From Candidatus Sungiibacteriota bacterium (GTDB taxonomy: Bacteria; Patescibacteriota; Minisyncoccia; Sungbacterales; HO2-52-23): a DNA stretch of 64,000 nt. Shown piece after piece: positions 21,527-59,671 of this stretch. The stretch spans positions 77,791 to 141,790 of the forward strand of contig JACPBG010000003.1 of NCBI GenBank assembly GCA_016180435.1, written 5' to 3'. The notes below the pieces were generated by a model. The model was not told the DNA's origin. It ran no database searches and saw only the letters and a program-made list of their open reading frames with translations. Position 1 is the stretch's first letter; every line of letters begins with the position of its first letter. The position numbers and the translations under genes are program-made.

Positions 21527-21530
21527 GGGT

Positions 21531-21639
21531 GTGATGCCAATCTACAAATCTAATGCCAATATAGCGAATTGCGAATCGATTTATGTATAAGCATTCGCAA
21601 TTTGTAGATTAGCATTAAATTCGCATCGGATTGGCATCA
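21531..21639. repeat. Family B element
   Basis: gtgatgccaatctacaaatctaatgccaatatagcgaattgcgaat...gcattaaattcgcatcggattggcatca. One end gives the TGA of rpmB; the other abuts the GTG of pepA. Confidence 0.8.
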
Positions 21640-21852
21640 TTGCTGGTGTAGTTTTTTTAAACACTTCACGCAAATTTTTGCGCGTTTCCCGGCCACCTGT
21701 GGCGAGTCTCGCCCTGCGGTGCGGGATTCTAATCTAGCCCATTGTAAATTGGGGTATTTTCTTATGGTTTTTGCTGGGTTATAATGGCTGCGGAGGAAAG
21801 CGCGTTTACCGGCAATAGAGGATCCTTTGTGGCAAAGAAAACAAGTTTTCAT
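21637..21852 (-). CDS. rpmB: 50S ribosomal protein L28
   Basis: CFLCHKGSSIAGKRAFLRSHYNPAKTIRKYPNLQ resembles L28 (C.vtGKR...SHa.NaTKRrf.PNLq). Confidence 0.7.
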   Translation of the reverse strand: MKTCFLCHKGSSIAGKRAFLRSHYNPAKTIRKYPNLQWARLESRTAGRDSPQVAGKRAKICVKCLKKLHQQ

Positions 21853-24852: not shown

Positions 24853-24957
24853 TGACCCCGTTAGAGATGCGGAACGAAATCACGTCAAAGTTTATATATG
24901 ATTAAAGAATACTCTCAGTATGTGTTTAGATGTAACCCAAATCTCTAACGCGGGGTT
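24853..24957. repeat. Family G ('ccccgttaga') element, copy 1 of a tandem pair
   Basis: tgaccccgttagagatgcgg ... atctctaacgcgggg. Confidence 0.7.
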
Positions 24958-25070
24958 GACCCCGTTAGAAAGAAACAGAGAATGCTTTTAATGCGGGAAT
25001 TGTTTGTTTTTACGAATAAAAATGGATTGCTGTTGCTACTATATTTGTTTCTCTCTAACGGGGTTGACCG
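24953..25070. repeat. Family G element, copy 2 of the tandem pair
   Basis: ggttgaccccgttagaaagaaacag ... tttctctctaacggggttgac. Confidence 0.75.
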
Positions 25071-25079
25071 TTTAAACCG

Positions 25080-25430
25080 GGCTTGGTATACTTTTTTTAT
25101 TCGGAATTTAGTATTTTGCTTTTGAGGCAATGAGAGGCGCGAAGCGCTACAATAAGCAACCCCCCCAAAGTGAGCACTGGCCGACAAAATTTTCCATTAC
25201 GGAGCTTGAAAATAAGCCGCAGAGCGGCTTCATTCAGAAAATAAAAGAGTGAGTATATAGGCGGTTGAGACCGTTACAATTTGAGATAATGGGAGGCGCG
25301 AAGCGCTACAATAAGAAAATACTAAAGTGAGTATACACGCGGTTTTGGCAATATGATTTTGAAACAATCAGGAGGCGCGATAGCATGGTTTCTCCGCCCG
25401 GGGCGGAGAATATCGCGCCGGATGCTTAGT
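25080..25430 (+). repeat. Tandem degenerate 'aaagtgag...aatgggagg-cgcgaagcgc-aataag' units (L1), leader of the str operon
   Basis: ttttgcttttgaggcaatgagaggcgcgaagcgctacaataag; gataatgggaggcgcgaagcgctacaataagaaaat; aaagtgagtatacacgcggttttggcaatatgattttgaaa. Related to the region at 45342-45557. Confidence 0.55.
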
Positions 25431-25911: not shown

Positions 25912-25994
25912 TTTTACGAAATACTAATCATTACGAATATACGGATTATTTGAAGACGTATTCGTAAATTCGTACTCATTCGTATTTCGTAAAG
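25912..25994. repeat. Family A element
   Basis: ttttacgaaatactaatcattacgaatatacgg...attcgtaaattcgtactcattcgtatttcgtaaag, then atc + ATG of rpsG. Confidence 0.8.
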
Positions 25995-26938: not shown

Positions 26939-29071
26939 ATGCCAAGAGAATATCCTTTAGAGAGTACCAGAGATATCGGCATTATTGCCCATATTGATGC
27001 CGGAAAAACGACCGTAACCGAGCGGGTGCTTTTTTATACCGGCGTATCGCATAAAATCGGCGAGGTGCATGAGGGCGATACGGTGATGGATTGGATGGAG
27101 CAAGAGCGCGAAAGGGGAATTACTATTACGGCGGCCGCAACGAATGTGTTTTGGGTGCCGACGCATGTCGGAGAACTTAGAACTGAGAACTTAGAACTTA
27201 GAAAAAAGAACGAATACAGAATAAATATCATAGATACTCCGGGACATATTGATTTTACCGTGGAGGTTCAGCGCTCACTTCGGGTATTGGATGGCGCGGT
27301 GGTGGTTTTTGACGGAGTGGCCGGAGTTGAGCCGCAATCCGAAACCGTCTGGCGCCAAGCCGATAAATTTAAAGTTCCGCGCATGTGTTTTATAAATAAG
27401 CTTGACCGCATGGGCGCGTCATTTGAGCGCTCGCTCAATTCCATTTATGAGCGACTAACCCCGAATGCGGTTTCGGTGGCAATACCCATAGGACACGAAC
27501 AGGAACACGAAGGCGTGATTGACCTTATGCGCATGAAGTCCGTGAAGTTTCTGGGAGATAAAGGAGAAAAACTTGAATTTGTTGAGATACCCGAGAATTT
27601 GAAATCCTATGCCGAGGAATGGCGCCATAAAATGGTTGAAAAAATTTCGGAAACGGATGACGCGCTTACGGATAAATATCTGGAAGGCAAAGAGATGACT
27701 GTCGAGGAACTGCGTGGCGCTTTACGCCGCGCGACCATTGGATATCGGCTGGTTCCGGTATTTTGCGGATCGGCGCTTAAAAATAAAGGCGTGCAGTTGA
27801 TGCTGGACGGTGTGGTTGATTATCTGCCCTCTCCTTTGGATATGCCGCCGGTAAAAGGAACTCATCCCAAAACCGGTGCGGAAGAAATTCGCGAAGCGAA
27901 AGATGATGCGCCATTTGCCGCGCTTGCTTTTAAATTGCAAACCGATCCTTATGTGGGACAACTTACATATTTTAGGGTTTATTCGGGCATGCTTAAAGCC
28001 GGATCTTATGTTTTAAATTCGGTAAATGGAGATCAGGAGAGGGTGGGGCGGATTTTGCGCATGCATGCCAATACCCGCGAGGAACTGAAAGAAATCGGCG
28101 CCGGAAATATCGGTGCGATTGTCGGTCTTAAAAATACCCGTACCGGAGATACGCTTTGCGATCCGGAGCATCCGGTTGTGCTTGAAAAAATCGTATTTCC
28201 CGAGCCGGTGGTATCTTTGAAAATTGAGCCCAAGACCAAGGCTGACCAGGAAAAAATGGGACTGGCCCTGCGGCGTCTGGGCGAGGAGGACCCGACATTT
28301 CGCATTAAAGGCGACATTGAGACCGGTGATACCATTATTTCGGGTATGGGTGAACTTCATTTGGAAATTATTGTGGATCGCATGAAGCGCGAATTTTCCG
28401 TGGAGGCCAATGTGGGCCGGCCGCAGGTGGCTTATAAAGAAACCATTAAAAAAACCGCGGAAGCGGAAGGAAAATATATTCGTCAATCAGGCGGACGCGG
28501 ACAGTACGGACATGCGTGGCTTCGGGTTGAGCCGCGCGAGCGCGGAAAGGGATTTGAATTTCTTGACGAGATCAAAGGCGGTATAATTCCGCAAGAATAC
28601 ATTCCGGCGATTGAAAAAGGGATTAAGGAGGCCATGGAAAAAGGTGTTTTGGCGGGGTACCCACTGGTTGATATGGCGGTCGCGGTTTATGACGGATCAT
28701 ATCATGAAGTGGATTCGTCCGAGGCCGCATTCAAAATCGCGGGTTCCATGGCTTTGCAGGAGTGCGTTAAGCGCGCGGGACTTGTGCTGCTTGAGCCGAT
28801 TATGAAAGTGGAGGTTGTGACTCCGGAGCAGTTTCTGGGCGAGGTTACCGGGGATTTGAATTCCAAGCGTGCGCGGATTGAAGAAATGTCCGAGCGCGGC
28901 CTGGGAATTAAGGTGATTGACTGCAAAGTTCCGCTTTCGGAAATGTTCGGATATGTTACGACTCTTCGTTCCTTGACGCAAGGCAGAGCCAGTTTTACTA
29001 TGGAATTTGATCACTACGAGGAAGTCCCGAATAATATTGCGCAGCTTATAATTGAAGGGAAGCGGCAGTGA
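26939..29071 (+). CDS. fusA: Elongation factor G
   Basis: [23 protein letters not shown] and all five EF-G domains. Contains a family F-encoded insertion ([15 protein letters not shown]) between G2 and G3. Confidence 0.95.
27172..27212. repeat. Family F heptad-repeat half-element, in-frame inside fusA
   Basis: gagaacttagaactgagaacttagaacttagaaaaaagaac. Confidence 0.7.
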
Positions 29072-29278
29072 TGCCAATCCAATGCGAATTTAATGTTTAC
29101 CCCGTTAGATAATAACCTTTTTTAAAAAGATGTGCTGTTGTTGTAAAAACCCTTTTAAAAATTTTATTGGTTGTCAAGAGATATCTAACGGGGCGAGTCT
29201 GGCGAATTGCGAATACTAAACACAAGATTTTATTAGCAATTTGTAGATTAGCATTTCATTTGTAGATTTGCATCATTG
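29066..29278. repeat. Family B element interrupted by a nested family G element
   Basis: cagtgatgccaatccaatgcgaatttaatg | G insert | tctggcgaattgcgaat...gcatttcatttgtagatttgcatca. Confidence 0.75.
29098..29193. repeat. Family G element nested in the B element
   Basis: tttaccccgttagataataacc ... agatatctaacggggcg. Confidence 0.7.
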
Positions 29279-29566
29279 CGTGCGAAGCACAAATAAAAAA
29301 TAGCGGCGTGGGACCGCATTAAGGCAAAAAGAGCGAGTCAATTTTAAACTTTAGTATATACACCCAACCGGCGCCTGCCACAATAATTGCAATAAAAATA
29401 AGAAAAGCGCCCCAGTCGAATTCGTAGATAAAACGTACGAGCGAAAATAAAATTTCAGAGATAGGACCTCGATCCGGCAGGGTGGGTAAAGAATATTCGT
29501 GCATAGCATTCTTTGTAATATATTATAGAGATCTATATTATGGACATATCAAAACTAAAAAATCTT

Positions 29567-29679
29567 GTCAACCCCGTTAGAGAGAAACAAACACATCAGT
29601 TATTGGGGAAAAGGTTATGTGTTAAAATAAAGGCGCTGTTTGCATGATTATCATTCCCTGTTTCTTTCTAACGGGGTCA
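29567..29679. repeat. Family G element (inserted after a promoter-like ttgtcaa)
   Basis: gtcaaccccgttagagagaaacaaac ... ctgtttctttctaacggggtcaa. Confidence 0.75.
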
Positions 29680-29723
29680 AGGCGAATCTTGACTTTATAT
29701 CAAAGATGGGATAAGTTTTTAAT

Positions 29724-29942
29724 ATGTCAATGGTCATAGAAAAAAAATATCACAAAAGTATTAGTGAGGTTTCGCGAAAGATGGGAATTAGAGAAAATGA
29801 TCTAGTGGGTCGTGCACTCGCTCTTTATTTAGATAGCGCAAAAAAAATTCTTGATGTAGAAAAAGAATTTAAGGCATGGGACGTTTTGAGCGATGAGTCG
29901 TTGGTTGGACTCGCTAAGCGTGTTCCAAGGCGGTCAATATGA
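29724..29942 (+). CDS. Putative antitoxin (partner of the MazF/PemK-like toxin)
   Basis: 72-aa ORF overlapping the toxin start by 4 nt (ATGA). Confidence 0.45.
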   Translation: MSMVIEKKYHKSISEVSRKMGIRENDLVGRALALYLDSAKKILDVEKEFKAWDVLSDESLVGLAKRVPRRSI

Positions 29943-30265
29943 AAAAGGGTGAAATTTGGTTGGTAGAAATTCCGGGCATTGACGGCCATGAACAGCGGGG
30001 ATTCCGCCCCGCGATTTTTATTGCGGACACCAAGACGGGCGTGGCCATAATTATTCCATGCACTTCTAATTTGCAAGCGCTTCGTTTCCCATTTACTATT
30101 CGTATTGAATCATCTCGCAGTAATGGATTAAATGAATTATCGGTTGCCCTGGTTCTTCAGCTTCGTGCTATTGATAAAAAGAGATTATTGAGAAAAATAG
30201 GACAACTTGATAATTCAGTTCTTAAAGAACTTGACGTGGTGATACGTAATCTTTTAGATTTATAG
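29939..30265 (+). CDS. MazF/PemK-family toxin endoribonuclease
   Basis: MKKGEIWLVEIPGIDGHEQRGFRPAIFIA has the typical PemK/MazF N-terminal signature. Confidence 0.75.
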   Translation: MKKGEIWLVEIPGIDGHEQRGFRPAIFIADTKTGVAIIIPCTSNLQALRFPFTIRIESSRSNGLNELSVALVLQLRAIDKKRLLRKIGQLDNSVLKELDVVIRNLLDL

Positions 30266-30382
30266 AGGACCAGTTTCGCGTACCCAAATAAAAATAGCGG
30301 CACGAGTCGAGGTAACCCATCGTGCATTCATTCTCGCTCTCCAATAAATAAGAACTACTATGGATATATCAAAATTAAAAAA

Positions 30383-30412
30383 TCTTGTCAAATATATATA
30401 GGAGATGGTATA
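30383..30412 (+). promoter_or_regulatory. Sigma70-like promoter for the hicBA cassette
   Basis: TTGTCA-N18-TATATT (cttgtcaaatatatataggagatggtatatt). The same ttgtcaa motif precedes the mazEF cassette. Confidence 0.4.
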
Positions 30413-30420
30413 TTGAAGAT

Positions 30421-30675
30421 ATGAAAAAACGACAAAAAATTAAAAAAGAAATCGCCACTTTTAATGCGGTATTTTTGGAAGAAAGCGATGGAGGATACAG
30501 CGTAAGTGTGCCTGCTTTGCCGGGCTGTTTTTCACAGGGTGATACCTTTGAAGCGGCCGTGGAAAATATAAAAGAGGCCATAGAACTTTATCTTGAAGAT
30601 GAATCTAAAGAGATTGATTTTTTGAAAGTTCGCCCTAAAAAAGAATTCATGGTACCAGTTGAACTTTATGCCTAA
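30421..30675 (+). CDS. hicB: HicB-family antitoxin
   Basis: FLEESDGGYSVSVPALPGCFSQGDTFEAAVENIKEAIELYLE matches the HicB/UPF0150 signature. Confidence 0.7.
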   Translation: MKKRQKIKKEIATFNAVFLEESDGGYSVSVPALPGCFSQGDTFEAAVENIKEAIELYLEDESKEIDFLKVRPKKEFMVPVELYA

Positions 30676-30895
30676 ATTGCCGCAGATTTCGGGAAAAGAG
30701 ATGGGGCGGGTTTTGGCTCGCCTCGGTTTTATATTCAAAAGCCAGAAAGGAAGTCATATGAAATTCATTCGCTTGCATGACGGCGCAAAAGAAATTATAG
30801 TAGTACCAAATCATAAAACGCTTCGTAAAGGAACATTTAGCGGCATATTAAAGCAGCTTAACATCACCTTTGAAAAATTACGCGAGCTGATGTAA
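30668..30895 (+). CDS. hicA: HicA-family toxin
   Basis: MPKLPQISGKEMGRVLARLGFIFKSQKGSHMKF matches the HicA/YcfA signature. Confidence 0.7.
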   Translation: MPKLPQISGKEMGRVLARLGFIFKSQKGSHMKFIRLHDGAKEIIVVPNHKTLRKGTFSGILKQLNITFEKLRELM

Positions 30896-30927
30896 TAAAA
30901 AATAGCGGTGCGGGTTCGTACACACAT

Positions 30928-31230
30928 ATGAGTGAAAAAATGGAAAAATTGAAAAGCGAAATATCTCCCGAAGAATATAAAAAAAAGCTTCTCACTGTTG
31001 CCGGCGAACTTTTCAAAGGGAAAGTCCCAAATTATTTCCTTGAATATCTTGATAATGATGAAATTGAAAGTGCCAGAGTATCACTTTTAGGCGCGATTGA
31101 TGCGTTCGTTTTTGGAAAAAATATATCAGATGAAGAAGCAAAAACAAAATATGAAATTCTGGGTTTTGATCCGGAGGAAGCAAGTAGGATCAGAAACTTA
31201 AGCAAAGCCAATAAAAGAAGATCTCAATAA
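30928..31230 (+). CDS. Hypothetical protein
   Basis: 100-aa ORF preceded by the same aaataaaaaatagcgg leader repeat. Confidence 0.4.
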   Translation: MSEKMEKLKSEISPEEYKKKLLTVAGELFKGKVPNYFLEYLDNDEIESARVSLLGAIDAFVFGKNISDEEAKTKYEILGFDPEEASRIRNLSKANKRRSQ

Positions 31231-31293
31231 TCAAATTTATTTTGCATTTTATTTTTTACGTTTTGTAGCAGAACAGCGATAAATTTTAAAAAT

Positions 31294-31593
31294 ATGGAGT
31301 GGGTAAAACTCAAAAATTTGGTAAAACAAAATGGAGATAAGTTTGTGTTGGTTGAAAATGGGGAGCCGGAAATTGTGATGATGTCTTTTCATGAATATCA
31401 GAAACTCGCTAATCATAATGCGAATACGGCGAATTTGCGTACGAATGTCACGAATCGCGAAGACGACAACTATTATATGGATGTATCCGCGGGCCGTTTG
31501 CCGGAAACCGAATTTGTATCACCCCACGAGTTAGAAGCGCCCGGACTTCCGGTGCGGCTTGAGGATATCCGGCTGGATGATCTGCCCATTTGA
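31294..31593 (+). CDS. Phd/YefM-like antitoxin-domain protein
   Basis: NGEPEIVMMSFHEYQKL resembles the Phd/YefM N-terminus; C-terminal extension; no toxin partner found. Confidence 0.45.
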   Translation: MEWVKLKNLVKQNGDKFVLVENGEPEIVMMSFHEYQKLANHNANTANLRTNVTNREDDNYYMDVSAGRLPETEFVSPHELEAPGLPVRLEDIRLDDLPI

Positions 31594-32993: not shown

Positions 32994-33098
32994 AGCAGTG
33001 ATGCTAATCCGATGCGAATTTAATGCCAATTTAGCGAATTGCGAATGCGTTATCATTAGCAATTTGTAGATTGGCATAAGATTTGTAGATTGGCATCA
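32994..33098. repeat. Family B element
   Basis: agcagtgatgctaatccgatgcgaatttaatgccaatttagcgaattgcgaat...attagcaatttgtagattggcataagatttgtagattggcatca. Confidence 0.8.
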
Positions 33099-33109
33099 TA
33101 TGTGGTTCC

Positions 33110-33466: not shown

Positions 33467-33588
33467 GCCATTTCATTTTTTCCAAGGCTTCGGCCGCTCC
33501 TGCGGCGGCCTGCAGGGTCGGCGAGACACTCGCGCGTTTCGCGCGAGACCAAGCTGTCTCGCCTCCCATTGCAAAAAATGAAATGCAA
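33467..33588 (+). repeat. Family E structured element (copy E2)
   Basis: Outer stem atttcatttttt/aaaaaatgaaat; ggccgctcctgcggcggcc; tgcagggtcgg; stem cgagaca/tgtctcg; inner hairpin ctcgcgcgtttcgcgcgag; accaagc; cctcccattg. Confidence 0.75.
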
Positions 33589-33681
33589 AAACCGTTTTGG
33601 CTCGCTTAGGGGTTTTTAGCGTAGCGCTTCGTCGAGCCAAGTTCGATTTCGCGCCGTTTACGTTAATAAGATGTAATAAAC

Positions 33682-34402: not shown

Positions 34403-34543
34403 TACCCCGTTAGAACGCCGCCGACTCCTGCTCGCCTCGCTAAAGCTACGGCGAAGCGGGTCGGTGGTAACGAACGATAGAGATAGCCAATGGGAGTGTA
34501 ATGCTCCCATTGGCGGATCGTGAAGCGCCCGTTCTAACGGGGT
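34403..34543. repeat. Family G element with GC-rich interior
   Basis: tttaccccgttagaacgccgccgactcctgctcgcc...gcgcccgttctaacggggt. Confidence 0.7.
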
Positions 34544-34624
34544 TTACGAAATACTAATTGTTACGAATATACGAATCCAAATCGGTTTTATTAGTAAATT
34601 CGTACTGATTCGTATTTCGTAAAG
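34543..34624. repeat. Family A element
   Basis: tttacgaaatactaattgttacgaatatacgaatcc...attagtaaattcgtactgattcgtatttcgtaaag, then ttt + ATG of rplC. Confidence 0.8.
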
Positions 34625-35251: not shown

Positions 35252-35257
35252 AACAAT

Positions 35258-35372
35258 AGATTACCACAGATTAATATACAGATTATCACAGATCACAGAT
35301 TTACGTCGTAACGTATTTTTTATCATCTGTGATCGGTGTATATCTGTGAGATATCTGTGAAAATCTGTTGGT
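35258..35372. repeat. Family H ('cacagat/atctgtg') palindromic element
   Basis: gattaccacagattaatatacagattatcacagatcacagat ... catctgtgatcggtgtatatctgtgagatatctgtgaaaatctgttgg. Confidence 0.8.
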
Positions 35373-35376
35373 AAGG

Positions 35377-36015
35377 ATGAAAATCAAAGTTTACAACCAA
35401 GAAGGAAAAGAAGCAGGAACTGCGGATTTGCCGGACGGTGTGTTTGGGTTGAAGTGGAACGCGGATTTGGTGCATCAGGTGGTAACTGGCCAGGCCGCGA
35501 ATTTGCGTAGAGGCACGGCGCATGCTAAAGGCAGAAGTGAAGTTCGCGGAGGCGGGAGAAAACCCTGGCGGCAAAAAGGCACCGGTCGCGCGCGCCATGG
35601 CTCTATCCGTTCTCCCATTTGGATCGGAGGAGGGGTTACGCATGGCCCCTTGAAAGAAAAAAGTTATCATAAAAAAATCAACAAAAAGATGGCAAAAAAA
35701 GCCCTTTTTACGGCACTTTCCGCCAAAGCGCGGGACAATGAAATTGTTATTTTGGAGGACTTGAAATTCTCGGAAGCTAAAACCAGGTATGCCGCAGAAA
35801 TTTTCAGGAATTTATCGCAAGTTGACGCGCTCAAAGACATTGTAAAAGCCAAAACTCTGCTTGCGTTTCCGGAAAAAAGCCATGATTTAAAGCGCGCATT
35901 TCGTAATTTGCCGCGAGTCGGCATGGACGAGGCCAGGAATTTGAATGCGCATGAAGTATTGCAGTACCGTTATATTCTTATGTCCAAAGCTGTGTTAGGA
36001 ATATTTAAGCAGTGA
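35377..36015 (+). CDS. rplD: 50S ribosomal protein L4
   Basis: GGGRKPWRQKGTGRARHGSIRSPIWIGGGV. Stop TGA is contributed by the family B element. Confidence 0.9.
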   Translation: MKIKVYNQEGKEAGTADLPDGVFGLKWNADLVHQVVTGQAANLRRGTAHAKGRSEVRGGGRKPWRQKGTGRARHGSIRSPIWIGGGVTHGPLKEKSYHKKINKKMAKKALFTALSAKARDNEIVILEDLKFSEAKTRYAAEIFRNLSQVDALKDIVKAKTLLAFPEKSHDLKRAFRNLPRVGMDEARNLNAHEVLQYRYILMSKAVLGIFKQ

Positions 36016-36172
36016 TGCCAATCCTATGCGAATTTAATGCCAATCTGGCGAATTGCCAATAAATATTCTTCGAGTGAAATCGAGATGATACCTTAATGTA
36101 TATTCTCGACAAGCTCGAATAGTAACGATTCGTAATTTGTAGATTAGCACTTCATTTGTAGATTCGCATCAT
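36009..36172. repeat. Family B element, long variant
   Basis: agcagtgatgccaatcctatgcgaatttaatgcc...ttcttcgagtgaaatcgagatgatacc...gattcgcatca. Confidence 0.8.
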
Positions 36173-36176
36173 ATTG

Positions 36177-36587
36177 ATGTCTTTACTCAATTTATTAAAA
36201 AGAAAAAAGGAGCCCGTAGTTAAAGAGAAAGAAGATAAATCTTTCGCTAAGCCAGTTTTAGTTGAACCAAAAGATTCTGTTCAGGATGAAACGGTAGAAA
36301 AAAAATCCGGGAAAGCGGTTTGGGGAGTTATAATCCGCCCGCATGTGACTGAGAAATCTTCCGATGCCGGAGGAGAAAATAAATATATGTTTATTGTGTC
36401 GCAAGGATCAAATAAGCGCTCAATTAAACAGGCGGTAGAGGGGCGTTATGGCGTCTCTGTTAAAAAGGTCGGGGTTCTAACCATGCCGGAAAAGAAACGC
36501 ATGCGTGGACGGCAAACCGGGTGGAGGCAGGGATTCAAGAAAGCAGTGGTAACGCTGAAAGAAGGGCAAGCCATAGAATTGCAGTGA
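36177..36587 (+). CDS. rplW: 50S ribosomal protein L23 (N-terminal extension)
   Basis: VIIRPHVTEKSSDAGGENKYMFIVSQGSNKRSIKQAVEGRYGVSVKKV. Confidence 0.8.
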   Translation: MSLLNLLKRKKEPVVKEKEDKSFAKPVLVEPKDSVQDETVEKKSGKAVWGVIIRPHVTEKSSDAGGENKYMFIVSQGSNKRSIKQAVEGRYGVSVKKVGVLTMPEKKRMRGRQTGWRQGFKKAVVTLKEGQAIELQ

Positions 36588-36684
36588 TGCCAATCCAATG
36601 CGAATTTAATGCCAATCTGGCGAATTGCGAATACGTTATCATTAGCAATTTGTAGATTAGCATAAGATTTGTAGATTGGCATCA
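36581..36684. repeat. Family B element
   Basis: gcagtgatgccaatccaatgcgaatttaatgccaatctggcgaattgcgaat...gcataagatttgtagattggcatca. Confidence 0.8.
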
Positions 36685-36702
36685 TGTTGTGCGAAGCACG
36701 AT

Positions 36703-37985: not shown

Positions 37986-38091
37986 AGCAGTGATGCCAAT
38001 CCCATGCGAATTTAATGCCAATCTACCAATTGCGAATATTCACATAATTCGCAATTCGCCAGATTAGCATTTCATTTGTAGATTTGCATCA
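37986..38091. repeat. Family B element
   Basis: agcagtgatgccaatcccatgcgaatttaatgccaatctaccaattgcgaat...agcatttcatttgtagatttgcatca. Confidence 0.8.
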
Positions 38092-38110
38092 TTGCAGTGC
38101 GAAGCACGAT

Positions 38111-38641: not shown

Positions 38642-38725
<84 letters not shown>

Positions 38726-39463
38726 GTGACTCATCGAGTTCATCCATACATATTTCGGATTGGGCATACGACGAATTGGAAGTCGCGTTGGTTTAGGGCG
38801 CATAAATTTTCTGAATATTTGCGTGAAGATGCCATATTGCGCGAGTTGCTGGAGAAAAAATTGCGCAAGAATCATATTGAGGCGATTGAAATTGAACGAG
38901 CTCCCAATGTTGTGCGGATATTTGTAAGAACTGCGCGCCCCGGAATGATTATAGGACGCGGAGGAGAGGGATCCGAAAAATTAAAAAATGAGATTACCGC
39001 ATATCTTGCCAAAATACGTAAGAGATTCAATAGCCCCGTGGTTCAAAAAGAGGATCTGAAGCTTACCATTGAAGAGGTGCGCGCTCCGGAGACCCATGCC
39101 CTAATCGCAGGGCAGATGATCGCAGATGAGATTGAAAAGCGTATTCCATTTCGCCGCGTGTTAAAACAGGCCGTTGAGAGGATTTTTGGATCAAAGGGCG
39201 TTGAGGGCGTTAAAATAATGATAAAAGGGCGTCTGGACGGCAATGAAATTGCGCGCACCGAATGGCTGAAAAGAGGACGGATTCCGCTGCAAACCATTCG
39301 TGCCAACATAGATTTTGCGCATCGTACTGCCTATACCACATATGGGACGATTGGGATAAAAGTATGGATTTATAAAGGAGATATATTTGATAAGAACTTA
39401 GATCTTAGAACTAAGAACTTAGACAAGCATTTAGAACTTAGAACCAAGAACTTAGAAAATTAA
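38726..39463 (+). CDS. rpsC: 30S ribosomal protein S3 with repeat-encoded C-terminal tail
   Basis: KH and S3_C domains (IGRGGEGSEKLKNE...). The last 24 aa (DKNLDLRTKNLDKHLELRTKNLEN) are encoded by the family F element. Confidence 0.9.
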   Translation: MTHRVHPYIFRIGHTTNWKSRWFRAHKFSEYLREDAILRELLEKKLRKNHIEAIEIERAPNVVRIFVRTARPGMIIGRGGEGSEKLKNEITAYLAKIRKRFNSPVVQKEDLKLTIEEVRAPETHALIAGQMIADEIEKRIPFRRVLKQAVERIFGSKGVEGVKIMIKGRLDGNEIARTEWLKRGRIPLQTIRANIDFAHRTAYTTYGTIGIKVWIYKGDIFDKNLDLRTKNLDKHLELRTKNLEN

Positions 39464-39515
39464 ACTATTTACTAAGTTCTAAACGCTAAGTTCTGAGATC
39501 TTTTGCGAAGCAAAC
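39392..39515. repeat. Family F element overlapping the rpsC 3' end and the intergenic gap
   Basis: taagaacttagatcttagaactaagaacttagacaagcatttagaacttagaaccaagaacttagaaaattaaactatttactaagttctaaacgctaagttctgagatcttttgcgaagcaaac, then ATG of rplP. Confidence 0.8.
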
Positions 39516-39920: not shown

Positions 39921-40020
39921 ACCCTGTACACAAATCCACAAATGAGCACACAAATCCACAAATGGAATAAGTATTCGTGATTCGTGGATTGGTGTAAACA
40001 TTCGTTGATTAGTGTGTTTT
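39921..40020. repeat. Family C element
   Basis: accctgtacacaaatccacaaatgagcacacaaatccacaaatgg...cgtgattcgtggattggtgtaaacattcgttgattagtgtgtttt, then ATG. Confidence 0.8.
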
Positions 40021-40200: not shown

Positions 40201-40202
40201 TA

Positions 40203-40303
40203 TCAACGAATAACGAATCTTGCGCGAATTTACGAATAAACGAATTTATGGTGAGTAGAGTCGAACCATTCGTATATTCGTAATAAATTCGTTATTCGAT
40301 GAT
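40203..40303. repeat. Family A' element
   Basis: atcaacgaataacgaatcttgcgcgaatttacgaataaacgaattt...ccattcgtatattcgtaataaattcgttattcgatgat. Confidence 0.75.
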
Positions 40304-40317
40304 AGAGCGAAGCGATC

Positions 40318-40608
40318 ATGAGGAAACTTAAAGGTATTGTCACATCCGATAAGATGCAAAAGACCGTCGGAGTGCGAGTAGATCGGTTAAAAAAACACCC
40401 AAAATACGGGAAATATTTTCGTACAACGCAAAAGTTTAAAGCACATGACGAAAAAGGGGAATATAAAATTGGCGATCTGGTTATTATTCAGGAAACAAGG
40501 CCGCTGTCCAAAGATAAAAGATGGCGTGCAGTTTCTTTAGTAAAACGCGGGATTGTGGAAACAGATGAGAAGGAAGAAAGCAGTGATGCCAATCCGATGC
40601 GAATTTAA
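40318..40608 (+). CDS. rpsQ: 30S ribosomal protein S17, C-terminus extended into the B element
   Basis: KGIVTSDKMQKTVGVRVDRLKKHPKYGK. The final SSDANPMRI* is encoded by family B sequence. Confidence 0.85.
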   Translation: MRKLKGIVTSDKMQKTVGVRVDRLKKHPKYGKYFRTTQKFKAHDEKGEYKIGDLVIIQETRPLSKDKRWRAVSLVKRGIVETDEKEESSDANPMRI

Positions 40609-40743
40609 TGCCAATCTGGCGAATTGCCAATAATTATTCTTCGAGTGTAATCGAGAAGTACCTTAGGGTATTATTCTCGACAAGCTCGAATGATAACCGA
40701 TTCGCAATTTGTAGATTAGCATAAGATTTGTAGATTGGCATCA
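40579..40743. repeat. Family B element, long variant
   Basis: agcagtgatgccaatccgatgcgaatttaatgccaatctggcgaattgccaat...ttcttcgagtgtaatcgagaag...gattggcatca. Confidence 0.8.
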
Positions 40744-40750
40744 TATTAAA

Positions 40751-41116
40751 ATGATCCAGCTTCGTTCTATGGTAAAAGTGGCAGATAATTCTGGGGCTGT
40801 TTTGCTCCAAGTTTTTCAGGTATCGCGCGGATCCCGCCATCGTTATGCGCGTATTGGCGATATGGTTGTTGCTTCGGTAAAAATTGCCGAACCTGGCAAG
40901 GCGGTTAAGAAAAAAGACGTTGTACACGCAGTGATTGTGCGAACGCGATCCCCGTATCGTCGCAAGGATGGGACCTATGTGCGTTTTGATGATAATGCCG
41001 CAGTAATACTTGACGGGACAGAACCCAAAGGAGGAAGGATTTTTGGTCCGGTAGCCCGGGAATTGCGCGATAGAGGATTTACAAAAATTGTTTCATTGGC
41101 GTCAGAAGTCGTATAA
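40751..41116 (+). CDS. rplN: 50S ribosomal protein L14
   Basis: [16 protein letters not shown]...[11 protein letters not shown]. Confidence 0.9.
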
Positions 41117-41280
41117 AGCAGTGATGCCAATCCTATGCGAATTTAATGCCAATCCGGCGAATTGCCAATAATTATTCTTCGAGTGAAATCGAGATGATAC
41201 CTTAATGTATATTCTCGACAAGCTCGAATAGTAACGATTCGTAATTTGTAGATTAGCATAAGATTTGTAGATTGGCATCA
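41117..41280. repeat. Family B element, long variant
   Basis: agcagtgatgccaatcctatgcgaatttaatgccaatccggcgaattgccaat...gattggcatca. Confidence 0.8.
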
Positions 41281-41287
41281 TATTAGA

Positions 41288-41606: not shown

Positions 41607-42149
41607 ATGCCGATCCAATCTTTACAAGAGCGATATAATAAAGACATTGTGCCGGCAATGGTGAAGCGATTCGGATATAAAAATATAATGGCCGTTCCAC
41701 GGATCCAAAAGGTTGTTTTGAATTGCGGAGTTGGGAAATTGCGCGACGAGAAACAGCGGGAAGAAGTGATCAAGTTTTTGACTTTAATTGCCGGTCAAAA
41801 GCCTTCGCCGCGCTCTGCGAAAAAAGCCATAGCGTCATTTAAAACGCGTAAAGGTCTTGTTATAGGATATCAAGTGACATTACGGGGAAGGCGCATGTAT
41901 GATTTCATTTCCAGGTTCACAGATATAGCGCTCCCGCGCACCCGTGATTTTAGGGGAATTGATGCAAAATCGTTTGATAGCGGCGGGAATTTGACAATTG
42001 GAATTAAAGAGCATATAGTATTTCCTGAAATGATCGGAGAGGATTACCATTTTTTGTTCGGCCTTGAAGTTACGATAGTGACCACGGCTCCAAGGCGAGA
42101 AGAGGGGGTTGAATTATTAAAGTTGATGGGATTCCCAATAAAGCAGTGA
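41607..42149 (+). CDS. rplE: 50S ribosomal protein L5
   Basis: NIMAVPRIQKVVLNCGVG...GMDITIVTTA-like core. Stop TGA is contributed by the B element. Confidence 0.9.
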   Translation: MPIQSLQERYNKDIVPAMVKRFGYKNIMAVPRIQKVVLNCGVGKLRDEKQREEVIKFLTLIAGQKPSPRSAKKAIASFKTRKGLVIGYQVTLRGRRMYDFISRFTDIALPRTRDFRGIDAKSFDSGGNLTIGIKEHIVFPEMIGEDYHFLFGLEVTIVTTAPRREEGVELLKLMGFPIKQ

Positions 42150-42256
42150 TGCCAATCCGATGCGAATTTAATGCCAATCTGGCGAATTGCGAATACCAAA
42201 TAAAGGAGTTTATTAGCAATTTGTAGATTAGCATAAGATTTGTAGATTGGCATCAT
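42141..42256. repeat. Family B element
   Basis: agcagtgatgccaatccgatgcgaatttaatgccaatctggcgaattgcgaat...gcataagatttgtagattggcatca. Confidence 0.8.
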
Positions 42257-42257
42257 A

Positions 42258-42446
42258 TTGATGGCTAAACAATCTGTCATAGCAAGGGCCCTAAAAAAAC
42301 CCAAATACAAATCCCGCTTAGTGCGCCGGTGTTTCCGTTGTGGCCGTAAACGCGGATATATGAGGGCGTTTGACGCGTGCCGGATTTGTTTCAGAGAAAT
42401 GGCAAACAGAGGGGAAATACCCGGAATAAAGAAAAGCAGCTGGTAA
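42258..42446 (+). CDS. rpsZ: 30S ribosomal protein S14 type Z (zinc-binding)
   Basis: 62 aa; [20 protein letters not shown]. Confidence 0.85.
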
Positions 42447-42453
42447 CTGATAA

Positions 42454-42538
42454 CTTTACGAAATACGAATCATTACGAATGTACGAATACATTTTATCAG
42501 ATTATTCGTAAATTCGTATATATTAGTATTTCGTAAAG
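42454..42538. repeat. Family A element
   Basis: ctttacgaaatacgaatcattacgaatgtacgaatac...attcgtaaattcgtatatattagtatttcgtaaag. Confidence 0.8.
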
Positions 42539-42547
42539 ATAAAGATT

Positions 42548-42943: not shown

Positions 42944-43170
42944 TTGCAGCGTTTTTAGATATTTTGCTTTCTCGACAAGTCCTCGGCCGCTCCTGCGGCG
43001 GCCTGCGGGGTCGGGCAAACACCGAGCACTGAATTTGTTCTAAAAATAGTTCCAGAGTTTGTCGAGGGACTACCTTGAAAGAAATCGGCATTGTATTGTG
43101 GGTTGAGTGCTCGGACCAAGCTGTTTGTCCTCCCATTGTCTCGAAAGTAAAATATCCAAAACGCATATAT
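42944..43170 (+). repeat. Family E structured element (copy E3, long variant)
   Basis: ~30-bp outer stem gcgtttttagatattttgctttctcgacaa / ttgtctcgaaagtaaaatatccaaaacgc; ggccgctcctgcggcggcc; stem gggcaaaca/tgtttgtcc; internal aaatagttccagagtttgtcgagggactacc insert shared with E1. Confidence 0.75.
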
Positions 43171-44236: not shown

Positions 44237-44239
44237 TTG

Positions 44240-44326
44240 ATTTTACGAAATACGAATCATTACAAATATACGAATACGTTTTGGTAAGTTGATTCGTAAA
44301 TTCGTACCTATTCGTATTTCGTAAAG
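44240..44326. repeat. Family A element
   Basis: ttttacgaaatacgaatcattacaaatatacgaatacgttttggtaagttgattcgtaaattcgtacctattcgtatttcgtaaag. Confidence 0.85.
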
Positions 44327-44328
44327 GC

Positions 44329-44826
44329 ATGGCAAGACCCCGAGAGCGAAAATTGAATTCGGAGTTTGAACGTGAGCGGTCGGAATTCGACCAGCGCGTT
44401 TTAGATATCAGGCGGACGGCCCGTGTGGTTGCGGGCGGCCGGCGTTTTAGTTTTCGGGCAGCCGTCATTGTGGGTAATCGCAAGGGCCGAATCGGGTTTG
44501 GGATGGGAAAGGGAATTGATGTATCCGCTGCCGTGGAAAAAGCCGTTCATCGGGCCAAAAAAGAATTGATAAATATTCCGCTCACCAAGAGCTTTTCAAT
44601 ACCTCACGGAGTCAGCGGCAAGGCGGCCGCCGCTCGGGTAATTTTGAAGCCGGCGGTTGAAGGCCGGGGACTTGTGGCTGGCGGCCCGGTACGGGCGATC
44701 GCGGACCTCGCAGGGATTAAGAATCTTACCGCCAAAATTCTTGGCCGTACTCCGAATAAATTGAACAATGCTAAAGCGGTGATAGAAGCGTTAAAACACT
44801 TGAAGAATTTAGAACAGAGAACTTAA
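44329..44826 (+). CDS. rpsE: 30S ribosomal protein S5
   Basis: RTARVVAGGRRFSFRAAVIVGNRKGRIGFGMGKG. Confidence 0.9.
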   Translation: MARPRERKLNSEFERERSEFDQRVLDIRRTARVVAGGRRFSFRAAVIVGNRKGRIGFGMGKGIDVSAAVEKAVHRAKKELINIPLTKSFSIPHGVSGKAAAARVILKPAVEGRGLVAGGPVRAIADLAGIKNLTAKILGRTPNKLNNAKAVIEALKHLKNLEQRT

Positions 44827-44829
44827 TTG

Positions 44830-44916
44830 ATTTTACGAAATACGAATCATTACAAATATACGAATACGTTTTGGTAAGTTGATTCGTAAATTCGTACCTA
44901 TTCGTATTTCGTAAAG
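44830..44916. repeat. Family A element; near-identical duplicate of 44240-44326 including the left flank ttaattgat
   Basis: Same sequence as the previous copy. Confidence 0.85.
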
Positions 44917-44918
44917 GT

Positions 44919-45557: not shown

Positions 45558-45693
45558 CGGAATTTAGCATTTTGCTTTTGAGGCAATGGGAGGATAAACA
45601 GCTTGGTCTTCCGCGAGGCGGAAGTGTTTATCCGACCCCGCAGGCCGCCGCCGGAGCGGCCGAGGACTTGCCGAAAAAGTAAAATACTAAAGT
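45558..45693 (-). repeat. Family E structured element (copy E4, reverse orientation, E3 subfamily)
   Basis: Reverse complement: gtcctcggccgctccggcggcggcctgcggggtcgg-ataaaca-cttccgcctcgcggaag-accaagc-tgtttatcc-tcccattgcctcaaaagcaaaat. Confidence 0.7.
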
Positions 45694-45711
45694 CCGCTAT
45701 GATGAGTAATC

Positions 45712-48051: not shown

Positions 48052-48857
48052 TTACGATTAAAACTACAGAAGAAATTGCTATATTGCGAGAAGGAGGCAG
48101 ACGGCTCGCAGAAATTTTGCAAAAGCTGGTTGAGGCGTCTTGTCCCGGCGTATCGGATTTTGAGCTTGATGTTCTGGCGGAGGAACTTATTTTAGCATGC
48201 GGAGGAAAACCGGCATTTAAGGGATACAGGATCAAGGAAACGCGCGTTGCGTTTCCCGCTTCCATTTGCGTGTCGATTAATGACGAGGTGGTGCACGGGA
48301 TCCCGCGCAAAAACCGGATCTTAAAAGATGGTGATATTGTCGGGATTGATATAGGAATGCAGTGGCCGAATCAAGAACTTAGAACTAAGAACTTAGAACT
48401 TAGAAATATAAGAGGAATGTATACGGATATGGCGGTAACTATCGGGGTGGGTAAAATTTCGGCAGAAGCCGAACGGCTGATTCAAACAACCCGATCTGCA
48501 TTAGATGTCGGTATTCGGACGGTACGTCCGGGTGCGCATGTCGGAGATATAGGATGCGCCGTGGAGGAGGTTCTAAAACGCGAAAAACTCGGGATTATAA
48601 GGGATCTTGCCGGACACGGCGTGGGGCATGATCTTCATGAAGAGCCGCTTATTCCGAATTACGGAATGCGCGGCGCCGGAGTAGAATTAAAAGAGGGCAT
48701 GGTTATTGCTATTGAACCCATGGCAACTTTGGGGGGATGGCGGATTAAGCTTGATCGAGATGAGTGGACGATCCGTACCGCTGATCGGAGTTTGGCGGCG
48801 CATTTTGAGCATACTTTAGTTGTTACAAAAAGCGGAGCGGAGATATTGACGAAATAG
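48048..48857 (+). CDS. map: Methionine aminopeptidase type I with repeat-encoded insertion
   Basis: Pita-bread fold with metal ligands (DIGMQ ... HGVGHDLHEEP ... AIEPM). Family F insert QELRTKNLELRN lies after DIG. Confidence 0.85.
   Translation: MITIKTTEEIAILREGGRRLAEILQKLVEASCPGVSDFELDVLAEELILACGGKPAFKGYRIKETRVAFPASICVSINDEVVHGIPRKNRILKDGDIVGIDIGMQWPNQELRTKNLELRNIRGMYTDMAVTIGVGKISAEAERLIQTTRSALDVGIRTVRPGAHVGDIGCAVEEVLKREKLGIIRDLAGHGVGHDLHEEPLIPNYGMRGAGVELKEGMVIAIEPMATLGGWRIKLDRDEWTIRTADRSLAAHFEHTLVVTKSGAEILTK
48373..48406. repeat. Family F heptad-repeat half-element, in-frame inside map
   Basis: caagaacttagaactaagaacttagaacttagaaat. Confidence 0.7.
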
Positions 48858-50255: not shown

Positions 50256-50493
50256 CAATTCCTAATTGCCTAATTGTCTAATTTCTAATAAAATGCCCAA
50301 TAAAGAAATTAAGAATTAAGGCCTTAGAAATTTTATTAGGTTCACCCCGTTAGAAAGAAACAGAAGGTATTTTTAGTGCAGAAATTATCTATTTTTATGA
50401 ATAAAAACGAGTTGCAGTTGCTACTATATTTGTTTATTTCTAACGGGGTAAATTAGGAATTAGGTGAATTTGGAATTTTAGTTCTTGCTCGCG
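50256..50493. repeat. Family D element containing a nested family G element
   Basis: caattcctaattgcctaattgtctaatttctaataaaatgcc...ttttattaggt | G insert | aaattaggaattaggtgaatttggaattttag. Compare the intact D copy at 55030-55145. Confidence 0.8.
50343..50458. repeat. Family G element nested in the D element
   Basis: caccccgttagaaagaaacag ... tttatttctaacggggt. Confidence 0.75.
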
Positions 50494-51589: not shown

Positions 51590-51595
51590 GTTGAT

Positions 51596-51680
51596 TTTAC
51601 GAAATACGAATCATTACGAATGTACGAATATGGCATGGCAAATTAATTCGTAAATTCGTATATATTCGTATTTCGTAAAG
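51596..51680. repeat. Family A element
   Basis: ttttacgaaatacgaatcattacgaatgtacgaatatggc...attaattcgtaaattcgtatatattcgtatttcgtaaag, then at + ATG of tpiA. Confidence 0.8.
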
Positions 51681-55983: not shown

Positions 55984-56107
55984 ATCCTGTACACAAATCC
56001 ACTAATGAGCACACAAATCCACAAATGGGATAAGTAGTCGTGATTCGTGGATTGGTGTATCAATTCGTGGATTGGTGTATCAATTCGTGGATTGGTGTGT
56101 TTGTTTT
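55984..56107. repeat. Family C element with triplicated right-arm iteron
   Basis: atcctgtacacaaatccactaatgagcacacaaatccacaaatggg...cgtgattcgtggattggtgtatcaattcgtggattggtgtatcaattcgtggattggtgtgtttg. Confidence 0.8.
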
Positions 56108-56108
56108 T

Positions 56109-56543: not shown

Positions 56544-56576
56544 CAAAAACCCGCGTAGGCGGATTTTTGTTATCCT

Positions 56577-56600
56577 TGATGCATCTATAAGCCGAATTCT
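56577..56600. terminator. Bidirectional hairpin terminator (rnhA on plus, rnpB on minus)
   Basis: aaaaacccgcgtaggcggatttttg. Confidence 0.6.
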
Positions 56601-56603
56601 GTT

Positions 56604-57093
56604 CCGCATTTTTTTATATTTTTGCGGAGATGATCATTTATCTAGGCCAAAGATTTCTCATTTGGCTCAAGCGGATTTTCCGCAATTGCGGATTACCTTG
56701 CACCGGATAGGAGTTTTTCACCGCGTATTGTTGCCAGTACGCGCTGTGAGCTTTTACTTTTACCTCGCCGAAGCGAAGCTTATCCCGCGCGAAGGCGGGC
56801 TCACTCTTTTCACCCTTACCTCCTCCACCATAAAAACCTTTAGAGTTTTTTTGATGACGATCGGCGGTATTGTTTCTGTGACACTTTCCCGGTCATGGCG
56901 GCCGTTAGCCGCTATCTCTAACGCTGCATAGCAGCGTAGAACTTAGAACCAAGATCTTAGAACTTAGAAAAACGACTAAGATCTAAGTTCTAATACTCTA
57001 AGTTCTGCGTTGCTATGCAACGCTGGTGTTCGGACTTTCCTCCCCCCAGTAATGTTTTGCATTAATGGGAGCGATCATCCAATGCATCAAGGT
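56604..57093 (-). ncRNA. rnpB: RNase P RNA (bacterial type), interrupted by a family F palindromic insertion
   Basis: Minus strand shows ggaggaaagtccgaacacc (P4 5' strand), gtcacagaaac, ggtaagggtgaaaagagtgagcc, ggtgcaaggtaatccgc, gcttgagccaaatgag...ggcctagataaatgatc...gcggaacagaattcggcttatagatg (E. coli M1-like 3' third). P1 pairs ccttgatgcat/atgcatcaagg. Confidence 0.75.
56935..57004. repeat. Family F palindromic element inserted inside rnpB
   Basis: tagaacttagaaccaagatcttagaacttagaaaaacgactaagatctaagttctaatactctaagttct, flanked by hairpins acgctgcatagcagcgt and gcgttgctatgcaacgc. Confidence 0.75.
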
Positions 57094-57126
57094 ACGTTTA
57101 TAATAATACTCCTAAAAAATTAAAAT

Positions 57127-57238
57127 GTCAACCCCGTTAGAGAGAAACAGGGATTCTCATTTATTTTCAAATATCTCTGTGTTTATAAAAACCTTTTGTG
57201 TGCAAATCACCGTGTTTGTTTCTTTCTAACGGGGTCAA
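57127..57238. repeat. Family G element
   Basis: gtcaaccccgttagagagaaacaggg ... gtttgtttctttctaacggggtcaa. Confidence 0.75.
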
Positions 57239-57340
57239 ATAAAAATCGTCCTGATTAGTTCGGGACGATTTCAGTATAAAATCTCCATCAAGCGAGCCCG
57301 ATATGCGTTTCTACGAAATTAGTGGAGGCGAAAATTCCAA

Positions 57341-57476
57341 GGGCGAGGTAATGCTGTTTTGAGACAATGGGAGGCGAGATTTGCTTGGTTCCGACGTCAG
57401 TCGGAAAATTTCGTCGACCCTTAGCGAGCGCGCCGCCGGAGCGCGCGAGTCGTGTCTCAAAACAGCATTGCCGAGT
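57341..57476 (-). repeat. Family E-like structured element (copy E5, reverse orientation)
   Basis: Outer stem gctgttttgagaca/tgtctcaaaacagc; reverse complement holds gcgcgctccggcggcgcgc hairpin, ccgactgacgtcgg hairpin, accaagc, cctcccattg. Confidence 0.6.
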
Positions 57477-58172: not shown

Positions 58173-59513
<1,341 letters not shown>

Positions 59514-59665: not shown

Positions 59666-59671
59666 ACACCT

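Follow-up and report, generated by a model that had tools for sequence, protein, structure and literature searches.

Palindromic repeats lie between stop and start codons at the intercistronic junctions of a 64-kb stretch of contig JACPBG010000003.1 (the window), which comes from a bacterium of the candidate phyla radiation (CPR; Sungbacteria, Parcubacteria). At least ten families are present, with AT-rich elements of 70-207 nt whose arms are made of short motifs of 7-11 nt. The family designated B includes the element between rpsQ and rplN (40578-40746) on which this analysis centres. At about even confidence, we regard the elements as co-transcribed palindromes resembling MITEs (miniature inverted-repeat transposable elements), which are kept only where the folded hairpin leaves the stop and start codons adjacent and are then held intact by selection. 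The window contains ftsA/ftsZ, comEC, pepA, rpmB, rpsL-rpsG-fusA, tuf, the S10-spc-alpha ribosomal protein genes, secY, adk, map and the atp operon. It was compared with relatives labelled L005, L016, L022, L023, L037-L041, L043 and L045 and with other groundwater Parcubacteria metagenome-assembled genomes (MAGs). L037 and L038 are close relatives, whose S17 protein is 87% identical to that of the window.

Position of the elements at stop and start codons

Repeat finding, combined with a listing of all spacers, gave 12 copies of family B in the window (100-207 nt). Their terminal inverted repeats are TGATGCCAATC...GATTGGCATCA and reach (A)GCAG in some copies. Allowing at most one mismatch, the window has 34 occurrences of GATTGGCATCA, where 1.45 would be expected. 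The stop-bearing terminal repeat is (A)GCAGTGATGCC, with the TGA inside it, and the 5' end of the element closes all three frames (TAA 4-5 nt upstream, at -7/-8; TGA at 0; TAA at +22). Two 96%-identical copies share sequence from AAGCAG through CATCATATT, so the approximately 4 nt past GATTGGCATCA (TATT or CATT) are the element's own. The rpsQ-rplN element is predicted to fold as a single long hairpin (-73.1 kcal/mol, z = -9.5). The copies are as follows.

40578-40746, plus strand: long form, rpsQ to rplN; alpha arm on the stop side, beta arm on the start side; rpsQ TAA at 40606-40608, rplN ATG at 40751
934-1103, plus strand: long form, lepB to a hisS-like gene; stop TAA overlaps the first A of AGCAA; ATG at 1105, 6 nt past the terminal repeat
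8082-8201, minus strand: short form upstream of ftsZ, opposite to ftsZ transcription; ATG at 8202, at 5 nt; ftsA stop 172 nt off
21527-21644, minus strand: short form, rpmB to pepA, both genes on the minus strand; its TGA ends rpmB; pepA GTG 5 nt past the other end
29064-29298, plus strand: copy 3' of fusA; TGA is the fusA stop; contains a nested ACCCCGTTAGA element, then the GTGCGAAGCAC mini-hairpin; convergent gene, with no downstream start
32994-33103, plus strand: short form, tuf to rpsJ; stop 7 nt before the terminal repeat; rpsJ TTG 11 nt past it
36007-36175, plus strand: long form, rplD to rplW; gives L4 a Gln plus TGA; 96% identical to 41116-41284
36580-36702, plus strand: short form plus GTGCGAAGCAC mini-hairpin (36689-36699), rplW to rplB; TGA is the rplW stop
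37986-38110, plus strand: short form plus mini-hairpin (38097-38107), rpsS to rplV; orthologous to a long-form B in L037
41116-41284, plus strand: long form, rplN to rplX; TAA, then directly AGCAG; ATG 7 nt past the terminal repeat
42141-42259, plus strand: short form, rplE to rpsN; gives L5 a Gln plus TGA; ATG 5 nt past the terminal repeat
59513-59671, plus strand: hypothetical gene to atpF; inner beta arm replaced; ATG 5 nt past the terminal repeat

The B inner module exists in two mutually inverted forms, TGGCGAATTGC...GCAATTTGTAGA and TACAAATTGC...GCAATTCGCCAGA. One form is found at 8082-8201, 21527-21644 and 37986-38096 and the other at 32994-33103, 36580-36689 and 42142-42260, an arrangement that looks like flip-flop recombination between the arms.

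On the stop side, the original prediction held that the TGA of the B terminal repeat serves as the stop codon of rplD, rplW, rplE, fusA and, on the minus strand, rpmB, and this is confirmed. Comparison with a close relative shows that the element does supply the stop: in rplD, rplE and fusA the native stop has given way to one added Gln followed by the TGA of the element (L037/L038 versus window: L4 ...FK* versus ...FKQ*; L5 ...IK* versus ...IKQ*; EF-G ...GKK* versus ...GKRQ*). As had also been claimed, rpsQ reads 9 codons into its B element (SSDANPMRI*, with the TAA 22 nt further on), and this tail is present in 0 of 25 homologous S17 proteins. Element-derived C-terminal tails are carried by S3 and S5 as well as S17. 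Five other B copies of the window have a stop codon ending 4-7 nt short of the terminal repeat.

On the start side, the start codon lies 5 nt past GATTGGCATCA for ftsZ, pepA, rplW, rpsN and atpF, 6 nt past it for hisS and 7 nt past it for rplN and rplX. Longer distances are found for rpsJ (11 nt, to a TTG start) and for rplB and rplV (18-19 nt). The elements were also proposed to supply start codons, which does not hold, since rpsC, atpA, rplN, rplX, rplB and rplW start at the same codon in relatives that have a different element or none at the junction. A TTG start is apparently used by rpsJ in the window (33110), L037 (2894) and L040 (3930), and rplN and rplX have TTG starts in L037 and ATG starts in the window.

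In two scans of sequence collections for a 21-nt B pattern, 17 further complete B copies came up at unrelated junctions in other groundwater Parcubacteria, including those at rplK, dnaJ, mraZ, rpmJ, atpA and a site-2 protease gene. True B was confined in these scans to a few groundwater Parcubacteria MAGs, and the metagenome scan mostly recovered the same few aquifer genomes. Planctomycete and other matches to the pattern lie inside conserved parA-like coding sequence and were rejected as chance. Among the pooled copies from inside and outside the window, the start is 4-11 nt past GATTGGCATCA in 21 of the 27 that have a downstream gene and 15-22 nt past it, mostly behind a separate GCGAAGC mini-hairpin, in the other 6; the repeat's TGA is the stop in 9 copies, and in 15 the stop ends 3-9 nt before the repeat. 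The positional preference on which the original prediction was to stand or fall genome-wide is thus seen in the copies of other genomes too.

The same geometry extends beyond family B. When 37 co-directional spacers were folded, most gave one predicted stem running from stop to start, with the 5' base -12 to +6 nt from the end of the stop codon and the 3' base -2 to +9 nt from the start. Such stems are common to B, A, F (AGAACTT), CACAGAT, ACACGAATCCAC and CAACGAAT motif hairpins and others. All 39 short-motif hairpins in the window adjoin the end of a coding sequence (30 at both ends, 7 at the start only and 2 at the stop only), whereas only about 14% of the residual non-coding DNA is 12 nt or less from one (P about 1e-34, a rough estimate). 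The long spacers of the window hold repeats of other kinds and none of these hairpin elements.

Part of this pattern reflects the compactness of the native junctions. In L041, which is poor in elements, spacers measure -4 to 26 nt at most junctions (median approximately 9 nt), and the residual spacer beside the window's elements has a median of 6 nt. Because native spacers are so small, an element that replaces one necessarily ends beside both codons. The claim that the elements sit at a fixed distance before start codons is accordingly not supported as it stands: short spacing is seen, but it is largely explained by the approximately 4 element nucleotides past GATTGGCATCA together with the tiny native spacers, and the fixed distance is mostly a residue of the latter. 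Judged on the sequences, chance and compactness are nevertheless insufficient for the pattern.

Proposed mechanism and competing explanations

As the original prediction stated, Shine-Dalgarno sequences are nearly absent from the window: the core motif lies upstream of 5 of 62 starts, compared with a background of 14%. Four relatives, including L041, likewise lack them, and a Parcubacteria subgroup without the anti-Shine-Dalgarno motif has been described by Tsurumaki et al. (PMC9297842). The native system probably relies on the proximity of stop and start codons. A link between element load and Shine-Dalgarno loss is ruled out by L041, which lacks these sequences and is almost free of elements; it follows that the elements are not required for initiation.

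We propose the following. Non-autonomous, MITE-like palindromic repeats colonised the intercistronic operon junctions of Sungbacteria-like Parcubacteria. The elements would be co-transcribed with the flanking genes and fold as one long stem-loop, the base of which would hold the upstream stop and the downstream start a few nucleotides apart. As the hosts lack Shine-Dalgarno sequences, downstream cistrons probably depend on this proximity through termination-reinitiation coupling. When a ribosome halts at the stem's 5' base, it would open approximately the last 10-15 bp and so free the 3' strand and the AUG. Insertions would be tolerated only with the flush geometry, and a hairpin once fixed would have to stay intact, which would explain why copies are better conserved than the adjoining ribosomal protein genes. 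An additional role of the elements as stabilisers of RNA 3' ends or as RNase III sites is possible. A stronger proposal makes them stop-start clamps, in which the stem gates each downstream cistron by prior termination, or cleavage at the stem base leaves near-leaderless cistrons, so that domesticated palindromes would set the stoichiometry of ribosomal proteins and ATP synthase; we consider this improbable.

Two kinds of evidence, conservation and orientation, show that some constraint exists. Coding DNA of the window is 77% identical to that of L038 and fourfold sites are 50% identical, near saturation. Orthologous spacers are far more similar: two family A pairs are 98% (99/101) and 93% (85/91) identical, and a CACAGAT hairpin is 90% identical to its L043 orthologue. 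The coding DNA beside conserved spacers diverges right up to the stop and directly from the start, which rules out recent transfer as the source of the 98% identity. As for orientation, the alpha arm of B (TGATGCCAATCCNATGCGAATTTA) is on the stop side, 5' in the mRNA, in approximately 25 of 28 scorable copies. These include the rpmB-pepA copy (21527-21644), which is inverted on the chromosome so that its alpha arm remains 5' in the mRNA. The two B arms are not mirror images of each other, and the difference between them gives G-U pairs that are conserved across species. These pairs make the sense RNA more stable, by a predicted 8-24 kcal/mol relative to the antisense RNA in 8 of 10 B junctions. 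The folding bias was rejected as a general rule, since it is restricted to the outer module of B; the inner module flips and the other families are symmetric.

Several observations weigh against the proposed mechanism. In the copy between rpsN and rpsH, loops and flanks are invariant as well, which is beyond what maintenance of a stem predicts. Both flip-flop forms of the B inner module are present, and families other than B show no bias in folding energy between sense and antisense. Covariation across 16 B copies gave a single compensatory pair in 33, a comparison with no power because the stems are nearly invariant. The copies at ftsZ and rplC and four A copies that consist of the 3' arm only adjoin a start without a nearby upstream stop, and the fusA copy adjoins a stop without a downstream start; coupling cannot account for these. 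Approximately 10 strain-level assemblies (99.4-99.9% identical) show no insertion polymorphism save one cassette swap, and TA target duplication is found in some copies only. Finally, no pair of B ends encloses a transposase open reading frame in the 76 stretches that the genome and metagenome scans yielded, a search that did not include the source genome.

The distribution of the elements speaks for mobility and turnover. They are copied within genomes, as the near-identical pairs in the window show (one A pair of 99%, one B pair of 96%), and nested insertions are present. In close relatives, elements are present or absent at the same junction, or swapped for other families. The rplD-rplW junction is filled in the window and empty in L037 and L041 (TAA TTTT ATG, 4 nt), and rplX-rplE and rplP-rpmC also differ in filling between the window and relatives. 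Between the window and L037, 12 of 19 S10-spc junctions hold different families and only four hold the same one; L039 and L040 have families of their own. The elements replace native spacers of about 1-26 nt, and the B terminal repeat can take over the stop codon.

Insertions are also found outside junctions. The RNase P RNA gene (56572-57090, minus strand) measures 519 nt, compared with the 367 positions of the Rfam model, and an insertion of 119 nt (about 56895-57014), close to positions 80-98 of the model, is an AGAACTT hairpin of the F type (56922-57022). Runs of AGAACTT heptamers lie in frame within fusA (27172-27227, EF-G) and map (48374-48429, ELRTKNLELRN in Map), and form C-terminal tails on S3 (rpsC 3' end, 39393-39463) and S5 (rpsE 3' end, 44803-44826). 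The cassette swap concerns the rplC-rplD junction of two 99.6%-identical strains: L043 has a CACAGAT hairpin (4983-5097) where L038 has a 313-nt segment (4798-5110) with a minus-strand open reading frame of 77 codons. The swapped stretch has TAA and ATG as its exact limits and the codons on either side have diverged, which points to cassette exchange by homologous recombination.

This last case bears on a different explanation, according to which insertion is targeted to AT-rich stop/start junctions (for example to the TA of TAA or TAG, in the fashion of IS630/mariner-type MITEs), with cassettes then spreading by homologous recombination through conserved flanking genes. Besides the swap, it can draw on the TA found immediately beside both terminal repeats in L005 and L022 and beside 11 of 27 start-side ends, on the two near-identical A copies that span exactly TAA to ATG, and on the fact that all 39 elements adjoin coding-sequence ends. 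Moreover, if an element entered the empty rplD site at the TA of TTTTTA|AATAA, the TTT AAG CAG TGA reading of the window would result. However, the window copies have no consistent target duplication, their stop-side flank being GCAG or GCAA rather than TA, and the collection scans turned up no partner insertion sequence. Targeting alone would also leave the orthologous conservation and the orientation bias unexplained. This account seems somewhat unlikely.

The elements might instead be purely selfish palindromes. Their flush geometry would then be survivorship: at tight junctions only precise deletion is viable, which traps copies there, while palindromes in long spacers are soon lost by imprecise deletion, and the all-frame stops in the terminal repeats would be fortuitous. 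The small native and residual spacers fit this account, as do L041 (equally without Shine-Dalgarno sequences yet almost free of elements), the interchangeability of families at a junction, the insertions in RNase P RNA and in frame within genes, and the agreement of the MITE-like traits with published descriptions. Selfishness alone is difficult to reconcile with orthologous copies that are 90-98% identical, loops and flanks included, above the flanking ribosomal protein codons and against 50% at fourfold sites. The strong orientation bias of B relative to transcription, and the retention of the start-side arm by all four half-copies of family A, also argue against it, and we think it unlikely.

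The third alternative is that the elements are dedicated cis-acting RNA elements, either RNase III or 3'-protector sites or start-defining leaders, in which the sequence as well as the fold would be selected. Conservation of the whole spacer, including the loop and the -10 to -1 flank, is consistent with this, as are the conserved G-U pairs and the orientation bias of B. The 3'-arm-only A copies and the GCGAAGC mini-hairpin, found 2-4 nt before starts independently of the upstream family, the concentration of elements in ribosomal-protein and ATP-synthase operons, and the action of RNase III and RNase E on Correia and ERIC repeats point the same way. Against it, unrelated families stand in for each other at a given junction, close relatives leave some junctions empty, L041 manages with almost no elements although it lacks Shine-Dalgarno sequences, and neither an Rfam family nor covariation supports it. 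We consider a dedicated RNA element distinctly unlikely.

Intrinsic terminators, with a GC-rich stem and a U tract behind it, were set aside as a candidate, because 17 terminator-like sites were found against 16 expected and none is at an element end, where a start codon follows. A promoter scan of the window likewise gave no enrichment.

[quoted passage not shown] If the elements are functional, they represent a new mode of organising operon translation or mRNA processing. If they only hitch-hike, they indicate that a selfish palindrome can become indispensable, with a broken stem uncoupling an essential gene. There are practical consequences as well: the repeats break assemblies (contigs L001 and L002 terminate inside the element of the rpsQ-rplN junction), and they mislead gene callers on start codons and C-terminal tails in CPR genomes.

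Relation to known repeats

E. coli REP/BIME sequences are intercistronic in operons, and REP hairpins within approximately 15 nt of a stop codon are reported to affect translation and mRNA decay. REPs are GC-rich palindromes of approximately 35 nt that are tied to RAYT transposases. The present elements do not have the REP/BIME (REPIN) form of a GC-rich palindrome of approximately 20-40 nt with a conserved tetranucleotide, being 70-207 nt, AT-rich and multi-motif. Mycobacterial MIRUs are intercistronic tandem direct repeats with small open reading frames, and reportedly extend over the stop and start codons on either side. Family B differs in closing all three frames with stops close to the 5' end and in being a single long palindrome instead of a tandem direct repeat. 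A search of Rfam with gathering and E-value thresholds passed only RNase P RNA and two tRNAs; the elements gave only sub-threshold matches to generic miRNA hairpins.

The elements conform to the MITE class in being short, non-coding, dispersed in many copies, bounded by terminal inverted repeats and present or absent at orthologous sites. Transcripts of bacterial MITEs form long stem-loops, and fusions to reading frames and insertions in RNA genes are known (PMC2229807). Like Correia/NEMIS, ERIC/IRU, RUP and YPAL (PMC2229807, PMC3184786), the elements are in the range of non-coding sequences of 100-200 bp with terminal inverted repeats at intergenic sites, here probably transcribed, and they share in-frame fusion to gene 3' ends, RNA-gene insertions, filled and empty sites, and TA at some termini. 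Unlike these MITEs, they have arms of short tandem motifs with regular mismatches; their sequences resemble none of these repeats, the scans yielded no transposase partner, and TA duplication is inconsistent. They also differ in occupying nearly every S10-spc junction, flush from stop to start, in a CPR host without Shine-Dalgarno sequences.

In pneumococcus, BOX repeats provide 36 genes with their stop codon, at the very 3' end (PMC3049150). The present elements resemble BOX (Croucher et al. 2011, PMC3049150) in being modular, probably co-transcribed with their neighbours and stop-encoding. An effect on mRNA stability has been proposed for BOX. However, BOX has a boxA-B-C architecture, a different sequence and a location mostly at operon ends, and no flush relation to the next start has been reported for it. 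Neisseria REP2 and Borrelia inverted-repeat sequences (Delihas 2011, PMC3184786) are likewise immediately upstream of genes, but they carry a promoter, ribosome-binding site and ATG; here the start is native, and no Shine-Dalgarno sequence or promoter is evident. Stop-encoding repeats, ATG-carrying upstream repeats and the general MITE syndrome are therefore already known. The present elements are set apart by density, flush geometry, conservation of copies and a host without Shine-Dalgarno sequences.

Other families and neighbouring features

Family A has 9-10 copies in the window, with terminal inverted repeats TTTACGAAATACGAAT...ATTCGTATTTCGTAAA. The earlier count of 13 copies, 12 of them with an ATG 1-8 nt away, is too high, as 9 start-side ends were found, but the proximity stands: the ATG is 2-9 nt after ...TTTCGTAAAG in 9 of 9. 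Four half-copies are known (3 in the window and 1 in L039), and the start-side arm is kept in 4 of 4. The copies with defined boundaries are listed below.

42447-42547, plus strand: rpsN to rpsH; 99/101 identical to the L038 orthologous spacer; flanking coding DNA 74-84%
44237-44328, plus strand: rplR to rpsE; 93% identical (85/91) to the L038 orthologue and 99% to 44827-44918
44827-44918, plus strand: rpsE to rplO; recent copy, exactly TAA to ATG; another element there in a relative
2917-2984, plus strand: HIT gene to rpsU
25912-25994, plus strand: rpsL to rpsG
34542-34624, plus strand: adjoins the rplC start, at the 3' end of a 492-nt spacer
51595-51680, plus strand: galT to tpiA
21855-21893, minus strand: 3' arm only, adjoins the rpmB start
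22345-22381, plus strand: 3' arm only, adjoins the start of the site-2 protease gene; divergent spacer

The remaining hairpins named above are located as follows.

38642-38725, plus strand: family F (AGAACTT heptamers) plus TTGCGGAGCAA mini-hairpin, rplV to rpsC
39393-39515, plus strand: family F, rpsC to rplP; 5' arm translated as the S3 C-terminal tail; mini-hairpin 2 nt before the rplP ATG
61031-61123, plus strand: family F plus mini-hairpin, atpH to atpA; in L016 the junction holds B with the same mini-hairpin
35252-35376, plus strand: CACAGAT-motif hairpin, rplC to rplD; 90% identical to the L043 orthologue; 313-nt cassette instead in L038 and L045
37534-37655, plus strand: CACAGAT-motif hairpin, rplB to rpsS
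40201-40317, plus strand: CAACGAAT-motif hairpin plus GAGCGAAGCGATC mini-hairpin, rpmC to rpsQ
39921-40020, plus strand: ACACAAATCCAC-motif hairpin, rplP to rpmC; further copies of the family at 2473-2568, 55984-56108 and 60398-60505

Family F was described as ending in a motif that supplies start codons. TTGCGAAGCAA plus 2 nt does precede the starts of rpsC, rplP and atpA, but the motif is not F's own end. The mini-hairpin (GYGCGAAGCRC or TTGCGAAGCAA) lies 2-3 nt before the starts of rplB, rplV, rpsC, rplP, rpsQ and atpA regardless of the upstream family. Since it also follows B (rplB, rplV) and another family (rpsQ), the GCGAAGC mini-hairpin is a module separate from family F. In L016 it precedes atpA and in L023 a gene, in two relatives it comes after B, and the copy after fusA has no start codon behind it. 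Its sites in the window are 36689-36699, 38097-38107, 38713-38723, 39503-39513, 40305-40317, 61111-61121 and, after fusA, 29280-29290.

The long spacers contain a larger repeat of approximately 180 nt (CTTCGGCCGCTCCTGCGGCGGCCTGCAGGGTCGGCGA ... CCAAGC..GTCTCGCCTCCCAT) in both orientations, which could be a structured RNA or another mobile family. Copies are at about 9330-9520, 33480-33620, 42980-43140, 45640-45700 and 57330-57420, and one copy 3' of rpsJ is approximately 89% conserved in L037/L043. A further inverted-repeat family has the ends ACCCCGTTAGA...TCTAACGGGGT (24860-25090, 29095-29200, 29560-29700, 34510-34540, 50340-50450 and 57090-57230); one copy is nested in B after fusA, and related copies are present in L037 and L039. 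In L039 (13465-13543 and 10265-10364) and at several L040 junctions, the arms are regular tandem units that are not exact complements; for example, (GGCACTAGG)x4 opposite (CCTAAAGCC)x4 gives a 2-nt mismatch in each 9-bp unit. Between fusA and tuf, the window has a toxin-antitoxin block (29319-31593; MazF-like, HicAB and a Phd-like antitoxin), where relatives have other small genes.

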